Shown: in pieces, positions 1 through 63,083 of the stretch
Position numbering within the stretch: the stretch's first letter is position 1
How the letters are laid out: every line of letters begins with the position of its first letter
Virus record (IMG/VR): IMGVR_UViG_3300024999_000093
Span: 3,696 to 67,695 of that record
Length of the DNA: 64,000 nucleotides
Direction: 5' to 3' (one strand)
From: a virus
Position numbers and translations under genes: made by a program
Notes under the pieces: generated by a model
What the model was told of the DNA's origin: nothing
Seen by the model: only the letters and a program-made list of their open reading frames with translations
Database searches by the model: none

Positions 1-1524
1 CCTAAACGCTAGTTCGAGTTGTTCACCCTCAGATAGACCGTCTAGTAGGGTTCCTCCGATACGAATCTTTCCATCTCCATCCACCGCAATCTCGGGAATA
101 GGTACGGCTGCAATCTTCAGGAGTTCCATTGGAGTTTTTCTAGCTGTTTCAATTCGTGCGGTCAGGGTTTGAGAAAGTTCTAATTTGGGAGCTATTTTAG
201 TTGTGATAATGTCTGACATGTTTTCGAACTCCCTAAGAAAACTTTGCATATGAGCTACGTTGTCGGCGGCTACTTGAAGAGGTTGAATGTCAATGGCTTT
301 ATTTTCATCAATTACCTGCTGAGAGTTCCCGGCCTCCGCATTGATCGTTTTTATCTGCTCAACTGTTTTTTCGTCAATGGATTGAAGGGATTGTTCTTCC
401 AGAGAATCAATATTTAGAATTTCCTGTTCTTTAGAAGTTTGAGAATTTTTGCATTTGGAAATATCCTCATTAGCCCTTGAAACTTCTTCATCTAGGTTTT
501 TTTTAACCAATGATACTGCAACATTAGCGTCTCTTCTGAGTATTTCTATCGCTTCATGACGTTGCTGTTTGAGTTCTTGCAGTTTTCTTTCGTATTCTGC
601 ATTATTTTTCTCAATGGTTAAATCCAGCTCTTGCATAATTGCTTTATCAGAATCCTGTAACCTTTCATTAGCACCATTTACTACAACTTCTGCCTTTTCG
701 ATTTTTTGATTCAAGAACTGGATAAACTCCCGTCCATCTGCACGTTTCCGATCATAAGCGTTCTTCTTCGTCTGCTTGTCCAACTCAGCATTAGCATTAA
801 TTGAGTCAATTTTATCCTGCACTCCCTGAATGGCATTTTGAGCAGCTAGAATCTTTTTATTGACTTCCTCGGCTTGCGCTACTTTCAGGTAAAACTCTTG
901 GACTTTCTGTTCTTTCCAGTAATCCCCATCATAGTTAGGAGGCAATCCGTCTCGAATTCCTGAAACTTGTGCCTTGAGAACCGATACTTCCCGGTTGATA
1001 GATTCGCGTTGGGTATAATAAAGAACTTCGATTTGCTTCAAGACTTGGAGAATATGAGCCTCATAATTAACCCCCGGTAACTCTCCGAACCAAATCTGAA
1101 TATCATTTGTGGACCATGGAATTTCAAGCATGTTGAGGATTATTTTAGCCTGATCATCAGTCGATTTCTTGACGAACTCAAGGGGTCTAAATACCTCTCC
1201 GCTAATCAATTTATTAAGAAATCCTTGAGTTGATGGAACGGTTTGCCCCTGCTTTCTGACTCTCAGGTAATCACCTTTGTCGCTTCTCACCTTGCGCTCG
1301 ATTTCCAAGCCATCATCAGTCTGTACAAATATCCTAGCCTCATCTTCACCGTGGCGAATAACTTCCGTCCGGCGAGATTTGTTGGTAAAAGCTTTTTCTA
1401 ATCCCTCGATAATGGATGTTTTACAGCTTCCGGTATGACCTGCCAAAATATTCACCTTGCCGGGATCAATCGCAAATTCAGATATACCAATCCAGTTTTT
1501 AAGTTCAAGACGTTTGATTCTCAT
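1..1524 (-). CDS. AAA/SMC-like ATPase (recombination-associated), truncated by window edge
   Basis: Not in ORF track. Manual translation from ATG 1524: MRIKRLELKNWIGISEFAIDPGKVNILAGHTGSCKTSIIEGLEKAF (SMC/SbcC-type N-terminus with Walker A-like GxxGSCKT), then coiled coil; runs off the left end. Confidence 0.75.
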   Translation of the reverse strand, partial: MRIKRLELKNWIGISEFAIDPGKVNILAGHTGSCKTSIIEGLEKAFTNKSRRTEVIRHGEDEARIFVQTDDGLEIERKVRSDKGDYLRVRKQGQTVPSTQGFLNKLISGEVFRPLEFVKKSTDDQAKIILNMLEIPWSTNDIQIWFGELPGVNYEAHILQVLKQIEVLYYTQRESINREVSVLKAQVSGIRDGLPPNYDGDYWKEQKVQEFYLKVAQAEEVNKKILAAQNAIQGVQDKIDSINANAELDKQTKKNAYDRKRADGREFIQFLNQKIEKAEVVVNGANERLQDSDKAIMQELDLTIEKNNAEYERKLQELKQQRHEAIEILRRDANVAVSLVKKNLDEEVSRANEDISKCKNSQTSKEQEILNIDSLEEQSLQSIDEKTVEQIKTINAEAGNSQQVIDENKAIDIQPLQVAADNVAHMQSFLREFENMSDIITTKIAPKLELSQTLTARIETARKTPMELLKIAAVPIPEIAVDGDGKIRIGGTLLDGLSEGEQLELAFR

Positions 1525-3067: not shown

Positions 3068-4145
3068 GCTGATTGCTCCTTTCTAAAACTTTCACAACCC
3101 GCTCAAAAATGAAATCAGGACACGGTTCTGCTACAGAATTCCCAACTGCCTTATATTTCGCTGAATCACTTGCTCCTTCGATGTCTAGCCAGTTGTCTGG
3201 AAATCCTTGTAACCTTAGGCACTCGGTTGGGGTTAGTCGGCGTACTCGGTAGCCGATGCGAACAGTATTTTGATAGTTAAGACTGTATCCACCGGTGTTT
3301 TTTGATTGCAGGGTTCCACTTAGTTCTTCTGTCTCGCATAGGTTGCGAACGTCTACAGCAACAACGGTGTCTACATCACCCCTAAATGATAAATTGGCTT
3401 TGGCGAGAAGTGTATTAGCCGGGTCGGGGTAGGCTACAGCTTGCCCACTGGCTAAATCTAACGTGTAGCTTATTTCTTCAGTCAACCCCCAGCCGTTGCT
3501 GCTCGTTTGGGCTGTACGAATAGCGTAGGTTGGCTTGGCTATTACTGGCACTGTATTACCACCTGCGCTGCCCTTAAGGGTTGGTGATAACTCCTCCGCA
3601 AACCCTATTGAGCGTGCATCTGCTGAGTTTCCAGCACTGAAGGCATCATAGGTTGGCTGCAAGCAAACTAAGCTATAGTGCTCGTCTCCCGCTGGCCCAC
3701 CGGTTCCCTTTGCCCACTTACTGCTGACGGTTCCGCTAATCCCCCCCCCGTTCGCAGTTAATCCGGCTTGCTGCTTTAATGCCATTTCCAGAACCGGAGG
3801 CAATTTCTTCCCACGCTTTTCCGCTCTCCTGAGGATCCCCAGACAAGCCTTCTTGCTCAAAAAGTATTTCTCCGACACATTGACCTCCAAAATCTGCGAC
3901 AAGGTAGATTCTCTTACGACGTTGGGGGACACCCCAATATTGAGCATCGAGTACTCTCCAAGCCACTGAGCGCCCGTTCCCTCTAACCATTCCGGCTTCT
4001 GCCCATCGTCCAGATCGAGGTATTGGAATTTTGGCCTCTGTGATTTCTTCAAGGACTGCCCTAAAATCGTGACCGTTGTTTGAGCTAAATGCTCCGGGGA
4101 CGTTTTCCCAAATAGCGAATCTTGGATACATTCCATTTGTGGCAA
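3054..4145 (-). CDS. C5 DNA methyltransferase, C-terminal/beta polypeptide (TRD region, motifs IX-X)
   Basis: ESTLSQILE...KYFLS segment, RRLTPTECLRLQGFPD (motif IX), YKAVGNSV (motif X); overlaps the N-terminal ORF in another frame. Confidence 0.75.
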   Translation of the reverse strand: MPQMECIQDSLFGKTSPEHLAQTTVTILGQSLKKSQRPKFQYLDLDDGQKPEWLEGTGAQWLGEYSMLNIGVSPNVVRESTLSQILEVNVSEKYFLSKKACLGILRRAEKRGKKLPPVLEMALKQQAGLTANGGGISGTVSSKWAKGTGGPAGDEHYSLVCLQPTYDAFSAGNSADARSIGFAEELSPTLKGSAGGNTVPVIAKPTYAIRTAQTSSNGWGLTEEISYTLDLASGQAVAYPDPANTLLAKANLSFRGDVDTVVAVDVRNLCETEELSGTLQSKNTGGYSLNYQNTVRIGYRVRRLTPTECLRLQGFPDNWLDIEGASDSAKYKAVGNSVAEPCPDFIFERVVKVLERSNQHDRI

Positions 4146-4458
4146 TCCTCATTTCTTTTATTATTCGTACTGCTTCCATGAATAATCCCGACCGAGACCC
4201 CCCTAGTCCTTCTCGTTTCCCGGCTACGCTCATGTCTTGACAAGGTGACCCGAACGAAATGATGTCAACTGGTTCAACCTCTGCCCCGTTTACCTTGGAT
4301 ACATCGCCTAAATGCTTCATATCAGGAAAATGCTCACTAGATACCTTAATTGGGAATGCCTCAATTTCACTTGCCCACTTCGTCACTATGCCGCAATGAC
4401 TTGCCGATAGCGGAAATCCTGCAATGCCGTCGAATAGGGAACCTAACGTTAACTCCAC
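3736..4458 (-). CDS. dcm: C5 DNA methyltransferase, N-terminal/alpha polypeptide (motifs I-VIII)
   Basis: SLFDGIAG (I), GSPCQD (IV), ENVPG (VI), PQRRKRIY (VIII); likely GTG start at 4458. Confidence 0.85.
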   Translation of the reverse strand: MELTLGSLFDGIAGFPLSASHCGIVTKWASEIEAFPIKVSSEHFPDMKHLGDVSKVNGAEVEPVDIISFGSPCQDMSVAGKREGLGGSRSGLFMEAVRIIKEMRIATNGMYPRFAIWENVPGAFSSNNGHDFRAVLEEITEAKIPIPRSGRWAEAGMVRGNGRSVAWRVLDAQYWGVPQRRKRIYLVADFGGQCVGEILFEQEGLSGDPQESGKAWEEIASGSGNGIKAASRINCERGGD

Positions 4459-4460
4459 CC

Positions 4461-4769
4461 TCAATACATATCCCCGCCATTCTTTATGCCCCAATTCACA
4501 CAATCCTCAGCAGTAAAAACCGGATTAAACGGCCTCTGCCCCATCCCCCTCGTATCCATCCCCACAGCCAACATTCTGCCATCTTCCTTATCTTCACGCC
4601 TGATCGACTTGCTGCTCAATTTCAAAGCGTCGAAATATCTCTTGGATTCCTGCTTTTCCAACTCAATTTTCTTGTGCCACTGTTCAAGCTTGTACCTGTC
4701 AACTTCGCGCTTAAACCATTCGATTTTCAGCAGTTTCCTTCCGATTGCCTTGCCGATTTTATTTAACAT
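4461..4769 (-). CDS. hypothetical phage protein
   Basis: 102 aa ORF tightly packed in operon. Confidence 0.5.
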   Translation of the reverse strand: MLNKIGKAIGRKLLKIEWFKREVDRYKLEQWHKKIELEKQESKRYFDALKLSSKSIRREDKEDGRMLAVGMDTRGMGQRPFNPVFTAEDCVNWGIKNGGDMY

Positions 4770-34950: not shown

Positions 34951-35751
34951 TTAGAATGAACTTGCACCGGAAAGACCGGGCGCGCCACAAAGAATAGTCC
35001 GGAAATTATTAATACCTGCTGAGTAGCGACTTCTTCCGGCAAAGACGTTACTATCATCGTTATCGTTAATATAACTCTTCGTGGTCAGGGGAATACGATC
35101 CAGCCAAATTAACGCCTGGTAAGCCTCGTTGAACGCAGAGTCCATAATGAACCAAGTGTCCAGTCCGCTAGTTGTTCCGGCAAATGCCGTAAGATATGGC
35201 GAAATGACTACGTTCCACCGGGAAGCGTTAATATTAATTCCATTATTTGCAGTTGTTGGGTTTAATTCGGAGCCGATAGCCTCGAATACTAACTTTTTAA
35301 TGGATGCTTTATCGGGGATGATAATGGTGTCGGGAGTCACCGAAAGGATATGACCATCATCATCGGTAAGATAATGAGCTTTCTCCTCAAGATAGTTTAG
35401 GTTATCGTATGAGAATGCAGCATTGTATAAGTTAGACTGTGTTCCCGTCCCACCAGTAATAGAAGGATGGTCAGTTGCGAACATAGCCTTACCATCAGCA
35501 CCGGAGATGTCAAAGTTCTTACCCATGAAACTCATTGTGGTTGCATTACCTTTATTGATAATTCCAGCCGCGAAAAGTTCCTTAGTGCGATTATAGGAGA
35601 GCATGAATGCAGAAGCGCGACTCTTGACCTTACCGAACTTCGCATCCTCAACCATTTCTTGAGTAACAGAGAATTGATTCTTCCAAGTCTCCGGTTCGAT
35701 GGTCTTACTGTAGCCCTCTTGGAAAGTGGATTCTGGATATTTACCATTTTC
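34951..35751 (-). CDS. major capsid protein, exon 2
   Basis: ENGKYPESTFQEGY...FSVTQEMVEDAK...GADGKAMFATDHP...PDTIIIP; joins exon 1 in frame (333 aa spliced). Confidence 0.85.
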   Translation of the reverse strand, partial: ENGKYPESTFQEGYSKTIEPETWKNQFSVTQEMVEDAKFGKVKSRASAFMLSYNRTKELFAAGIINKGNATTMSFMGKNFDISGADGKAMFATDHPSITGGTGTQSNLYNAAFSYDNLNYLEEKAHYLTDDDGHILSVTPDTIIIPDKASIKKLVFEAIGSELNPTTANNGININASRWNVVISPYLTAFAGTTSGLDTWFIMDSAFNEAYQALIWLDRIPLTTKSYINDNDDSNVFAGRSRYSAGINNFRTILCGAPGLSGASSF

Positions 35752-36747
35752 CACGCTGTTACCTTTGCGAAATATAGGAGTTAATGTTATTAAAACGTGC
35801 TTGTGTAAAGAATTTTTGCCTTGGATACCATTCGTCAACGTATGAATTATTTTTACTATTATTACAAGTCCTACACGCAGGTAATATATTTGTTTTCGTG
35901 TAGGGTCCACTTTTAGTTACGGGTATAAGATGATCTTGCTCAAGCTTCAGCTTTCTCCCACAATACGCACAGCAAAACTTAAAAGATTTCTTGCATTCGT
36001 TCCATTGCTCAGTGGTAAAATCTCTCACACTATTTGCTTCATTGGAACGTCTTTTATGTTTTGTTTTCAGCATGTAACCCTTGTGTTTTTCTGGGTTAGC
36101 TTTTATATAAGCCGTAACTCGTTTAATTATCTTTTCTCTATTCAACTCATACGTTCTGGCATGACGAATTATATTGAGCTTACTTTTATGCTCTTTATTC
36201 AGTATCCAATATTGCTTATCATATTCTCTACACTTTTCAATATTATCCCTGCGGTATTGTTTCGAGTACGCCTTGCCCTCTTCTCGATGGGCTGTGTTGT
36301 ATTCTAGCTTATACTCTGCTTTATGCTCTGCGTTGTCTACGTCCCATTTATCCTTGGACTTTTTCATGCACTTTCTGCACCATCTTTGTAGACCGTCAGA
36401 GTTAGCCTTGCATAAACTAAACTCAACTTCCTCTAATTCATTACCGCACTTTTTACACGTTTTCACATTAACTCCATTCCACAACGAGCTAATCATTTCT
36501 GTTAGCTTCTGCATGTTTCCATGCAGTTCAGACTATTACTTCCACGGTATACACCGCAGCCCTCTCAATTAGTCGTTGCAAGTGTTCTAGCTAATTATAT
36601 TATACCATTTTCGCCAACGGAATACAACATAATCTTCCAGAACTTCTTGAGCGTTTCCTTACCTTGTCCTATCTCGCTAGGCATTTGGCTTTAGGGGTTC
36701 GCCATTGATTAGAGAAGGTTTAGAGTGGGCAAAAATTAATGTATTAA
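35752..36747 (-). mobile_element. group I intron (996 nt) in major capsid gene
   Basis: P1 GUGGGU/GCCCAC with U-G at the 5' splice site; P7 GACUA/UAGUC (CAACGACUA...AAGUAAUAGUC); P3, P8, P9 (CUGCAUG-GAAA-CAUGCAG); terminal G before GAA AAT. Confidence 0.9.
35759..36466 (-). CDS. intron-encoded HNH homing endonuclease
   Basis: KTCKKC...WCRKC; CAYCG...QDHLIP...NILPACRTCNNSKN; likely GTG start 36466 after GGAG. Confidence 0.85.
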   Translation of the reverse strand: MKTCKKCGNELEEVEFSLCKANSDGLQRWCRKCMKKSKDKWDVDNAEHKAEYKLEYNTAHREEGKAYSKQYRRDNIEKCREYDKQYWILNKEHKSKLNIIRHARTYELNREKIIKRVTAYIKANPEKHKGYMLKTKHKRRSNEANSVRDFTTEQWNECKKSFKFCCAYCGRKLKLEQDHLIPVTKSGPYTKTNILPACRTCNNSKNNSYVDEWYPRQKFFTQARFNNINSYISQR

Positions 36748-36948
36748 ACCCACTGGCGAGAAGTTTCCGAGTGATGTCTCGATAGTGTACTTGTTGGCAA
36801 AGTCCTTCGTCTCGTCCATATAAAACACCTTGTCGATGATAGACATCTTCTGGAACGCTTCTTCCTGCTGTTCCAGCATCATTTTGATTGGCTCCTGTGA
36901 CTTACCGAAAATACTGTCATTAACTCCACTTGCTTTACTAAAAATCAT
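36748..36948 (-). CDS. major capsid protein, exon 1
   Basis: MIFSKASG...ETSLGNFSPVG, 67 codons, AAGGAG RBS. Confidence 0.85.
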
Positions 36949-47858: not shown

Positions 47859-47887
47859 TTGACATTCATCCTTGAATCGACTATACT
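47859..47887 (+). promoter_or_regulatory. strong sigmaA promoter
   Basis: TTGACA-N17-TATACT. Confidence 0.75.
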
Positions 47888-48766: not shown

Positions 48767-48795
48767 TTGACATACTAGCTAACTAGCTATATACT
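48767..48795 (+). promoter_or_regulatory. strong sigmaA promoter with CTAGCTA repeats in spacer
   Basis: TTGACA-N17-TATACT; CTAGCTA twice (operator-like). Confidence 0.7.
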
Positions 48796-55621: not shown

Positions 55622-55721
55622 ATAATCACCCCTTCCGTTATATTATATACGTATTTACGTATATTCTCAAGCGTATTTACTTATATACGTATATGAATTA
55701 CAATACTTTAGAGGTGATTTT

Positions 55722-62958: not shown

Positions 62959-63083
62959 TTTCCTTCCTATATTAACAGTATACCATAAGTATGTCCATGT
63001 TGTCCATATAAACCAACGTGTAAAACATGGATAAGTTGACCATAATATACCTGTCTGATATAATATTTTTAGGAGGGGATAGT

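Follow-up and report, generated by a model that had tools for sequence, protein, structure and literature searches.

A phage capsid gene split by a group I intron

The stretch of DNA analysed here (hereafter the window, 64,000 nt) makes up most of a 67.7-kb phage record in IMG/VR, for which no close relatives were detected among GenBank phages by blastn. Its capsid protein has only distant matches in GenBank phages (at most 47.5 % identity), and a portal-like protein gave two matches there. The genes surrounding the intron described below are carried on the minus strand.

The major capsid protein gene is found in two parts, i.e. exon 1 (36748..36948, minus strand), whose 67 codons end in ...S P V G, and exon 2 (34951..35751, minus strand), which starts with E N G K Y P E S... 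and matches the Pfam families Phage_capsid_4 (50.4 bits) and Mu-like_gpT (39.2 bits). When IMG/VR was scanned with the exon 2 protein, 14 relatives with 75-98 % identity were obtained, and in a tblastn comparison 14 intron-less relatives were seen to contain exon 1 with 88-100 % identity, its end coinciding exactly with the start of exon 2. The two exons are contiguous in 14 of the 14 intron-less relatives, being joined at ...S/x P V/T G followed directly by E N/x G K Y..., and since all of these alleles are uninterrupted at exactly this point, the limits of the intron can be set at 36747..35752 (996 nt), with the capsid protein split at PVG/ENG. The spliced junction thus reads GTGGGT at the end of exon 1 (36748), continuing with GAAAATGGTA at the beginning of exon 2 (35751). 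One intron-less allele (L014) has an extra in-frame deletion of 9 nt a few codons downstream of the junction.

The insertion (35752..36747, minus strand) is a group I intron, predicted to be self-splicing. The core elements P1 to P9 occupy the first ~240 nt, and an ORF for an HNH endonuclease lies 3' of the core, a position in which the ORF of the sunY intron is also found. In P1, GUGGGU at the end of exon 1 is paired with GCCCAC, found 17 nt into the insertion; the pair at the 5' splice site is U.G, and the final base of the intron is a G (omega-G, 35752). The internal guide sequence, AUUUUU-GCCCAC(U) (36724..36736, minus strand), contributes its 3' part to P1 with the end of exon 1 and its 5' part to P10, in which AUUUUU could form six pairs with the start of exon 2 (GAAAAU) at the true 3' splice site. 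The duplex between the guide sequence and the ligated exons has a predicted energy of -13.7 kcal/mol.

An RNAalifold consensus of the window intron and two sister copies recovered P1, P3, P4-P5, a long P6-P6a-P6b, P8 and P9 with a GAAA loop, and contained compensatory double changes in four pairs, i.e. one in P6a and three in P8; P7 (GACUA:UAGUC) was assigned by eye. The Rfam model RF00028 matched the intron with 21.1 bits (E 0.0026), below its gathering score of 50, and gave no match to the intron in larger-scale searches. This score may be lowered by the length of the P6 extension and by the 3' ORF.

The HNH endonuclease gene (35759..36466, minus strand) ends with a TAA (35761..35759) located 7 nt short of the 3' splice site. 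Its product matches Pfam PF01844 (39.7 bits, cutoff 21.4) and PHROG 1035 (E 1e-28), and the PDB entry 4h9d matches the HNH domain (3.9e-10). The ATG at which the ORF listing begins this frame (36514) is located inside the stem of the P9 hairpin CUGCAUG-GAAA-CAUGCAG (36509..36526, minus strand), a stretch without any differences among the three intron copies, and the reading frame of the IMG/VR sister copy (L016) departs from that of the window just past this ATG. The start codon is probably the GTG at 36466, since GGAG (36475..36472 in the window) followed by a GTG, TTG or ATG is found at one and the same place in all three copies.

Both sister copies occupy the same capsid site, one in IMG/VR (L016) and the other on a metagenome contig (L018), and their HNH proteins are 72-73 % and 77 % identical to that of the window, respectively. 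A 21-mer from the intron core was found only in the L016 contig within IMG/VR and had no match in the genome_contigs collection, and HNH-based scans revealed one close copy in metagenomes (L018) and, in genomes, only relatives with 24-36 % identity. Some distant HNH relatives from Staphylococcus and Bacillus phages (H1, H2 and H29) were discarded as intron cases, being either free-standing beside terminase genes or too ambiguous. Altogether, the intron with its HNH ORF is present in 3 of the 17 capsid alleles found, and such a patchy presence is as expected for an active homing element.

A copy of the insertion site in the P6b hairpin

On the strand of the HNH gene and upstream of it, the intron harbours the sequence GTTGGCGAAAATGGTA (36603..36618, minus strand), which in frame encodes V G E N G. 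The initial annotation had described it as a copy of the spliced exon junction within a peripheral loop of the intron, with 14 of 16 positions identical and both mismatches at synonymous third positions of V-G-E-N-G. Comparison with the spliced junction confirmed both the count and the codon positions, and the loop is indeed peripheral, the copy being located at the apex of P6b. The resemblance can be extended to TCC GTT GGC GAA AAT GGT A out to 36621, i.e. to the in-frame pattern TCN GTN GGN GAR AAY GGN A with an added Ser codon, and permitting a one-base gap lengthens it to ...GGTA[T]AATAT. In-frame translation of the window copy gives ...Y S V G E N G I I and that of the L018 copy ...F S V G E N G I I, compared with F S P V G E N G K Y in the capsid protein. 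An 11-codon mini-ORF over the copy (MLYSVGENGII and a stop codon) was rejected as a peptide gene, there being no usable ribosome site and, in L016, no ATG.

Several comparisons bear on whether such a copy could have arisen by chance. Among the 987 16-mers of the spliced capsid mRNA, a single one matches the sense strand of the intron with at most two mismatches, and this one straddles the junction at offset -6, although only 15 of the 987 positions would overlap the junction at all; none of the 987 matches the antisense strand of the intron at this threshold. The codon-degenerate motif GTNGGNGARAAYGGNA has one exact match in the 64-kb window, namely the copy itself, and none in 100 shuffles; with one mismatch permitted, a match occurs in 26 of 100 shuffles. 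A harsher ungapped test (+1/-2), in which the 60-nt junction was compared with shuffled versions of the intron, gave no significance, with 195 of 2000 shuffles reaching the observed score. On balance, chance is mostly set aside, and the 16-21 nt resemblance to the junction is regarded as non-random.

The copy was also compared with three intron-less capsid alleles (L002, L003 and L005), to each of which it is identical at 13 of 16 positions, with mismatches only at third codon positions. Its top gapped match is the L002 allele, with 25 of 32 columns identical. Two further similarities were set aside. A longer colinear resemblance between intron nt 130-246 and exon 2, the score of which was reached by 2 of 500 and 1 of 500 shuffles, is regarded as chance, as 4 of 240 real-sequence tiles score at least 19 and the resemblance is missing in L016 and L018. 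A second match to GGNGARAAYGG, downstream of the capsid gene in two relatives (L006 and L014), is part of the next gene, where it encodes A G E N G, and is not a mimic.

A promoter-like site over the same bases

The copy overlaps the spacer and the -10 element of a sigma-70-like promoter candidate, TTGTAT-N17-(TGG)TATAAT (36599..36627, minus strand), for which a transcription start is predicted near 36592/36591. The presence of this motif had been pointed out by the initial annotation, which located it one base off (36598-36626); the -35 hexamer TTGTAT spans 36627..36622, the 17-nt spacer 36621..36605 and the -10 hexamer TATAAT 36604..36599. As the spacer ends in TGG, the candidate has an extended -10 element (TGnTATAAT). 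Of the 383,790 positions of the window scored with a consensus weight matrix of approximate frequencies, it ranks 8th, and in each of the three copies it is the top-scoring sigma-70-like site of the intron region, with scores of 11.94 in the window, 9.22 in L016, where the site reads TACAAT and is without TG, and 11.54 in L018. Its -35 hexamer matches the consensus at 3 of 6 positions, which is why a stricter consensus scan did not list it. Among the sites ranked higher, four (47859+, 48767+, 55670- and 63036+) occupy spaces between long ORFs, and three of these directly precede a gene of the same orientation; the phage therefore does seem to use host-type promoters.

The element is located ~130 nt upstream of the likely HNH start codon, with P7 to P9 in between, and a scan for terminator-like sites between the promoter candidate and the HNH ORF found none. 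For a transcript that starts at 36592, the ribosome site is predicted to be somewhat more accessible (0.5-0.64 unpaired) than it is in the pre-mRNA (0.15-0.26), which counts as weak evidence.

The same bases are also part of a conserved RNA structure. According to the RNAalifold consensus of the three copies, P6, P6a and P6b form an extended hairpin (36579..36649, minus strand; P6b stem 36634..36593), with a compensatory A-U to G-C change among the copies in P6a. The apical P6b fold is predicted at -14.8 kcal/mol, and the insertion-site copy corresponds to its loop and 3' arm. TTGTA of the -35 element and TATAA of the -10 element are paired partners, located on the two arms of the conserved P6b stem, and the loop GGCGAA contains a GNRA-type tetraloop. 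Four one-sided stem changes between the copies turn G.U pairs into Watson-Crick pairs, and the 12-bp P6b stem is wholly Watson-Crick in L016; in L018, two changes in the 5' arm break apical pairs and create a shifted stem. Since RNA structure also constrains the sequence of the element, its resemblance to a promoter could result from an AU-rich hairpin. Promoters read within structured RNA genes call for caution, given that hexamers can coincide with the arms of a hairpin in a ribozyme.

Conservation in sister copies and absence from related introns

The 16-mer copy is kept in both L016, with one T>C change, and L018; the three introns differ by 8-10 % overall, and their guide sequences show no differences. 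When compared with their own junctions, the sister copies match at 13 of 16 (L016) and 12 of 16 (L018) positions, with null fractions of 0.014 and 0.008 in an ungapped test and of 0.075 and 0.31 in a gapped 32-mer test, respectively. In L016, an AAT>AAC change is found in both the exon and the copy; this is one event, and the change also turns a G.U pair of the stem into G-C.

As a check, the initial annotation had proposed looking for mimics of their own insertion sites in related introns. A scan for the P7 motif pair yielded 36 loci, most of which are recognisable introns. After leaving out seven loci of one non-intron family, L017 (identical to the L016 contig) and loci without a clear P1 or too short, 13 related introns at ~9 insertion sites were compared, including introns with the ORF in P6, introns with the ORF 3' of the core and ORF-less introns. 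Their splice sites were deduced from P1 pairing, the 3' motif GTAACA...G, P10 and continuity of the reading frame. None of the 13 contains a copy of its junction beyond chance (minimum Hamming distances of 4-6 of 16, null fractions of 0.095-0.82); for one of them (L041), the gapped test gave a nominal 0.038. A junction copy is thus a peculiarity of this intron lineage and not a rule of the class, a negative result that matters in its own right. Many of the related introns harbour their ORF in the P6 loop, and an ORF-deleted derivative (L048) retains TTGACA-17-TATACT in P6; orphaned cassettes in P6 thus do occur.

Interpretation of the element

As RNA, the 29-bp element is the tip of the peripheral P6b hairpin of a mobile group I intron. 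As DNA, it would probably be a host-type (sigma-70/sigma-A) promoter aimed at the HNH gene and carrying, in its spacer and -10 region, a copy of the likely recognition site of the HNH enzyme, i.e. of the insertion site V-G-E-N-G. A short transcript without the 5' half of the ribozyme could then express the endonuclease independently of the late capsid transcript, and the enzyme, by binding to the copy, would block RNA polymerase and limit its own level. With the same specificity, it would cleave intron-less capsid alleles during co-infection, copy and target differing only at wobble positions, i.e. at positions where homing endonucleases typically tolerate changes.

We consider an operator of this kind for the HNH endonuclease, comparable to that of I-TevI, to be the best single explanation, with a probability of roughly 0.4 judged from the sequence and by analogy. 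It is favoured by a copy that is unique and non-random, that deviates from the junction at wobble positions only and that lies under the top promoter-like site of the intron, as well as by the AAT>AAC change mirrored in exon and copy of L016 and by the patchy occurrence of the intron. Against it stand the -35 element with 3 of 6 consensus positions, the identity of the hexamers with stem arms, the weaker matches of the sister copies, the 0 of 13 related introns with a copy and the 195 of 2000 shuffles in the ungapped test, as well as the ~130 nt to the start codon, whereas the T4 operators are found just upstream of their ORFs. Self-repression of the HNH enzyme through a captured mimic, as put forward by the initial annotation, is partly supported, gaining from the presence of a non-random copy over the top promoter-like site and losing as a general rule for related introns. 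We infer promoter activity, binding by the HNH enzyme, repression and the role of the junction as its recognition site; because a conserved RNA stem has these same hexamers as its arms, the words 'captured' and 'represses' stay at the level of inference.

If the element is an operator, self-repression would be extended from a single proven case, i.e. the GIY-YIG enzyme I-TevI acting at a T4 late promoter, to an HNH enzyme, and a host-type promoter as well as a capsid-gene intron of an uncultured phage would join this known kind of regulation. Moreover, the recognition sequence of an uncharacterised HNH enzyme could be read straight from the genome, which would offer a cheap way of predicting the targets of intron endonucleases.

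The alternative that survives best, improbable as we judge it, is that the copy is a relic: ~20-30 bp of a diverged capsid allele would have been captured into the P6b loop, or would mark the landing pad of an earlier invasion by an endonuclease gene, and would persist only as part of a stable hairpin without any regulatory role. Mismatches restricted to wobble positions and an in-frame S V G E N G (F S V G E N G in L018) are what descent from coding sequence predicts, and the best gapped match to the intron-less L002 allele (25 of 32 columns) fits this origin as well. So do the orphaned P6 cassette of L048 and junction-like sequences as marks of ORF invasion, which Loizos, Tillier and Belfort are said to have recognised in 1994. 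Yet the copy is intact, with no ORF splitting it and the present ORF ~130 nt away, and neutral decay should have reached all codon positions, whereas the 16-mer shows one change in three copies, small as these counts are. A relic would also leave unexplained why the copy overlaps exactly with the best promoter-like site.

Unlikely, too, is a role for coincidence, i.e. either a real promoter with a fortuitous copy, or both as chance by-products of an AU-rich hairpin with a GNRA-type loop (G-GCGA-A). The hexamers do form the arms of the stem, and the loop GGCGAA does have the GNRA-type tetraloop; the ungapped +1/-2 score was attained by 195 of 2000 shuffles, and the longer exon 2 similarity, missing in L016 and L018, falls within the real-sequence null (4 of 240 tiles scoring at least 19). 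Furthermore, 64 kb had been scanned for curiosities, so that the selection of this one was post hoc. What chance accounts for poorly is the exact codon-level match, seen in 0 of 100 whole-window shuffles, and the fact that, of all 16-mers of the gene's exons, the one matching the intron best falls on the junction (overlapped by 15 of 987 positions). Nor does it account for the coincidence of the copy with the top promoter-like site.

More doubtful is the notion of an RNA pseudo-substrate, in which GUUGGC/GAAAAU, being complementary to the guide sequence (AUUUUUGCCCAC), would occupy the guide after exon ligation, so that the abundant excised intron would be kept from re-binding or reverse-splicing into the capsid mRNA. 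Since a C stands where the 5' splice site has its reactive U, the resulting P1/P10-like helix would be unreactive. Of 12 positions, 11 can pair with the guide sequence (duplex -8.9 kcal/mol), the U>C difference sits exactly at the cleavage position and the guide sequence is the same in all three copies; moreover, binding of the guide sequence by intron-internal sites after splicing is known from cyclisation in Tetrahymena. However, the copy is held in a hairpin of -14.8 kcal/mol, the apical stem of which would need opening, and a duplex of -8.9 kcal/mol, against -13.7 kcal/mol for the ligated exons, is energetically marginal. The similarity also extends beyond the footprint of the guide (GGTA, AATAT), pairing between RNAs does not predict mismatches at wobble positions, and none of four ORF-less related introns compared (L035b, L044, L045 and L051) has such a copy.

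A highly improbable reading would have the 29-nt element doubly selected, i.e. as a DNA operator-promoter for self-repression of the HNH enzyme and as a dead RNA substrate that captures the guide sequence after splicing and holds the very abundant excised intron away from the junction in the capsid mRNA, such that one sequence would serve three uses as protein site, promoter spacer and guide-sequence decoy.

Comparison with known systems

The precedent on which the operator reading draws, i.e. autorepression by I-TevI through an operator resembling its homing site, is borne out by the review PMC2988022. In the td intron of phage T4, the I-TevI operator shares 15 of 20 positions with the homing site and overlaps a late promoter; it is bound with an affinity equal to that of the homing site, and cleavage is ~100-fold less (Edgell et al. 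2004, reviewed in PMC2988022). The element described here is alike in being a homing-site-like sequence within the intron (14 of 16 positions) that lies over the promoter, here a candidate, of the endonuclease gene in a peripheral part of a group I intron. In both systems, a transcript from this promoter is, or here would be, free of upstream RNA, which in T4 hides the ribosome site. The two differ in the enzyme (GIY-YIG in T4, HNH here), in the promoter (T4 late as opposed to a host sigma-70-like -35/-10 candidate) and in position, the T4 operator being located in P6a just upstream of the ORF and the present element at the tip of P6b, separated from the ORF by ~130 nt and P7-P9. Moreover, binding and repression are proven in T4, whereas our element is a putative operator.

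Similar putative operators are described, in the same review, for I-TevII (nrdD/sunY intron) and for the HNH enzyme I-TevIII (nrdB intron). As in our case, these homing-site-like elements, which lie over middle or late promoters, were deduced from sequence, and I-TevIII shares the HNH type with the enzyme studied here. They differ from the present element in having T4-type promoters and in residing in genes of nucleotide metabolism rather than in a capsid gene, and a pattern of wobble-only mismatches is not reported for them in the passages of PMC2988022 that describe them. That homing endonucleases tolerate changes at wobble positions, and that phage endonucleases are modular in build, is documented in PMC3943268.

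Turning to sequence relics and to the host gene, two further cases may be considered. Junction-like intron sequences flanking the I-TevII ORF were reportedly read by Loizos, Tillier and Belfort (1994) as the trace of an invasion by the endonuclease ORF; there the similarity is split across the ORF, whereas here it forms one intact block far from the ORF. Finally, Cluster J mycobacteriophages are said to harbour group I introns in their capsid genes, and the intron described here likewise interrupts the capsid gene of a tailed phage.

Reading frames within the intron

In the ORF listing, the HNH frame of the capsid-gene intron opens with an ATG contained in the P9 hairpin (window 36509..36526, minus strand). 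Over the 48 nt 3' of this ATG, the reading frame is not kept among the intron copies, since it is shifted in L016, the second IMG/VR copy. The true HNH start is probably the GTG at 36466, preceded by GGAG (window 36464..36476, minus strand), with the start codon lying at one shared position as GTG, TTG and ATG across the three intron copies.

The junction copy, i.e. the intron-internal likeness of the spliced capsid junction, is included in frame in an 11-codon mini-ORF, MLYSVGENGII-stop (window 36630..36595, minus strand). Its counterpart in the metagenome contig L018 reads MLFSVGENGII-stop, and in L016 it is without ATG. The mini-ORF is probably not a gene; the in-frame reading of the junction copy within it fits a descent from coding sequence.

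Promoter-like sites and the possible capsid target

Four near-consensus sigma-70-type promoters were located between long ORFs, at 47859..47887 (+), 48767..48795 (+), 55670..55642 (-) and 63036..63064 (+), three of them immediately upstream of a same-strand gene. These sites are likely to be early promoters for the host polymerase.

Compared with the intron-less L002 allele, the capsid gene differs at 163 of 1002 positions. Immediately 3' of the insertion site, 41 nt (+3..+43) are identical (window 35749..35709 vs L002 3003..3043), and this may represent a recombination or co-conversion tract, or else a constrained recognition region. In another intron-less relative, L015, a free-standing HNH gene (3801..4721) lies immediately 3' of the capsid gene. 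Its product shares 29 % identity with the intron's HNH, and the gene is preceded by TGGTATAAT, whose extended -10 is identical to that of the sigma-70-like candidate overlapping the junction copy. It may encode a free-standing endonuclease with the capsid gene as its target.

Related introns at other sites

Some uncultured phages harbour at least two group I introns of this class inside a few hundred bases of one structural gene (L035 4075..4905 and L026 1347..2449), with inferred junctions ...MLFP/IKYQKG... and ...MTFYP/TFVATN.... Both sites were seen again across contigs, i.e. L031, L041 and L051, and L026, L035 and L056. Related introns in homologous genes of L036 (7087) and L037 (4882) have insertion points five codons apart (...PKLVD/TILNG... 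and ...RLLP/KVVDTVLNS...); these sites are distinct but adjacent, within a single conserved stretch.

At one other insertion site, a related intron carries a full ORF in P6 (L041) or occurs as ORF-deleted derivatives (L048 and L051). The P6 loop of L048 (about 1390..1440) retains TTGACA-17-TATACT which, together with the ORF-deleted derivatives, indicates that putative host-type promoters inside introns, as well as orphaned cassettes in P6, occur in this intron class.
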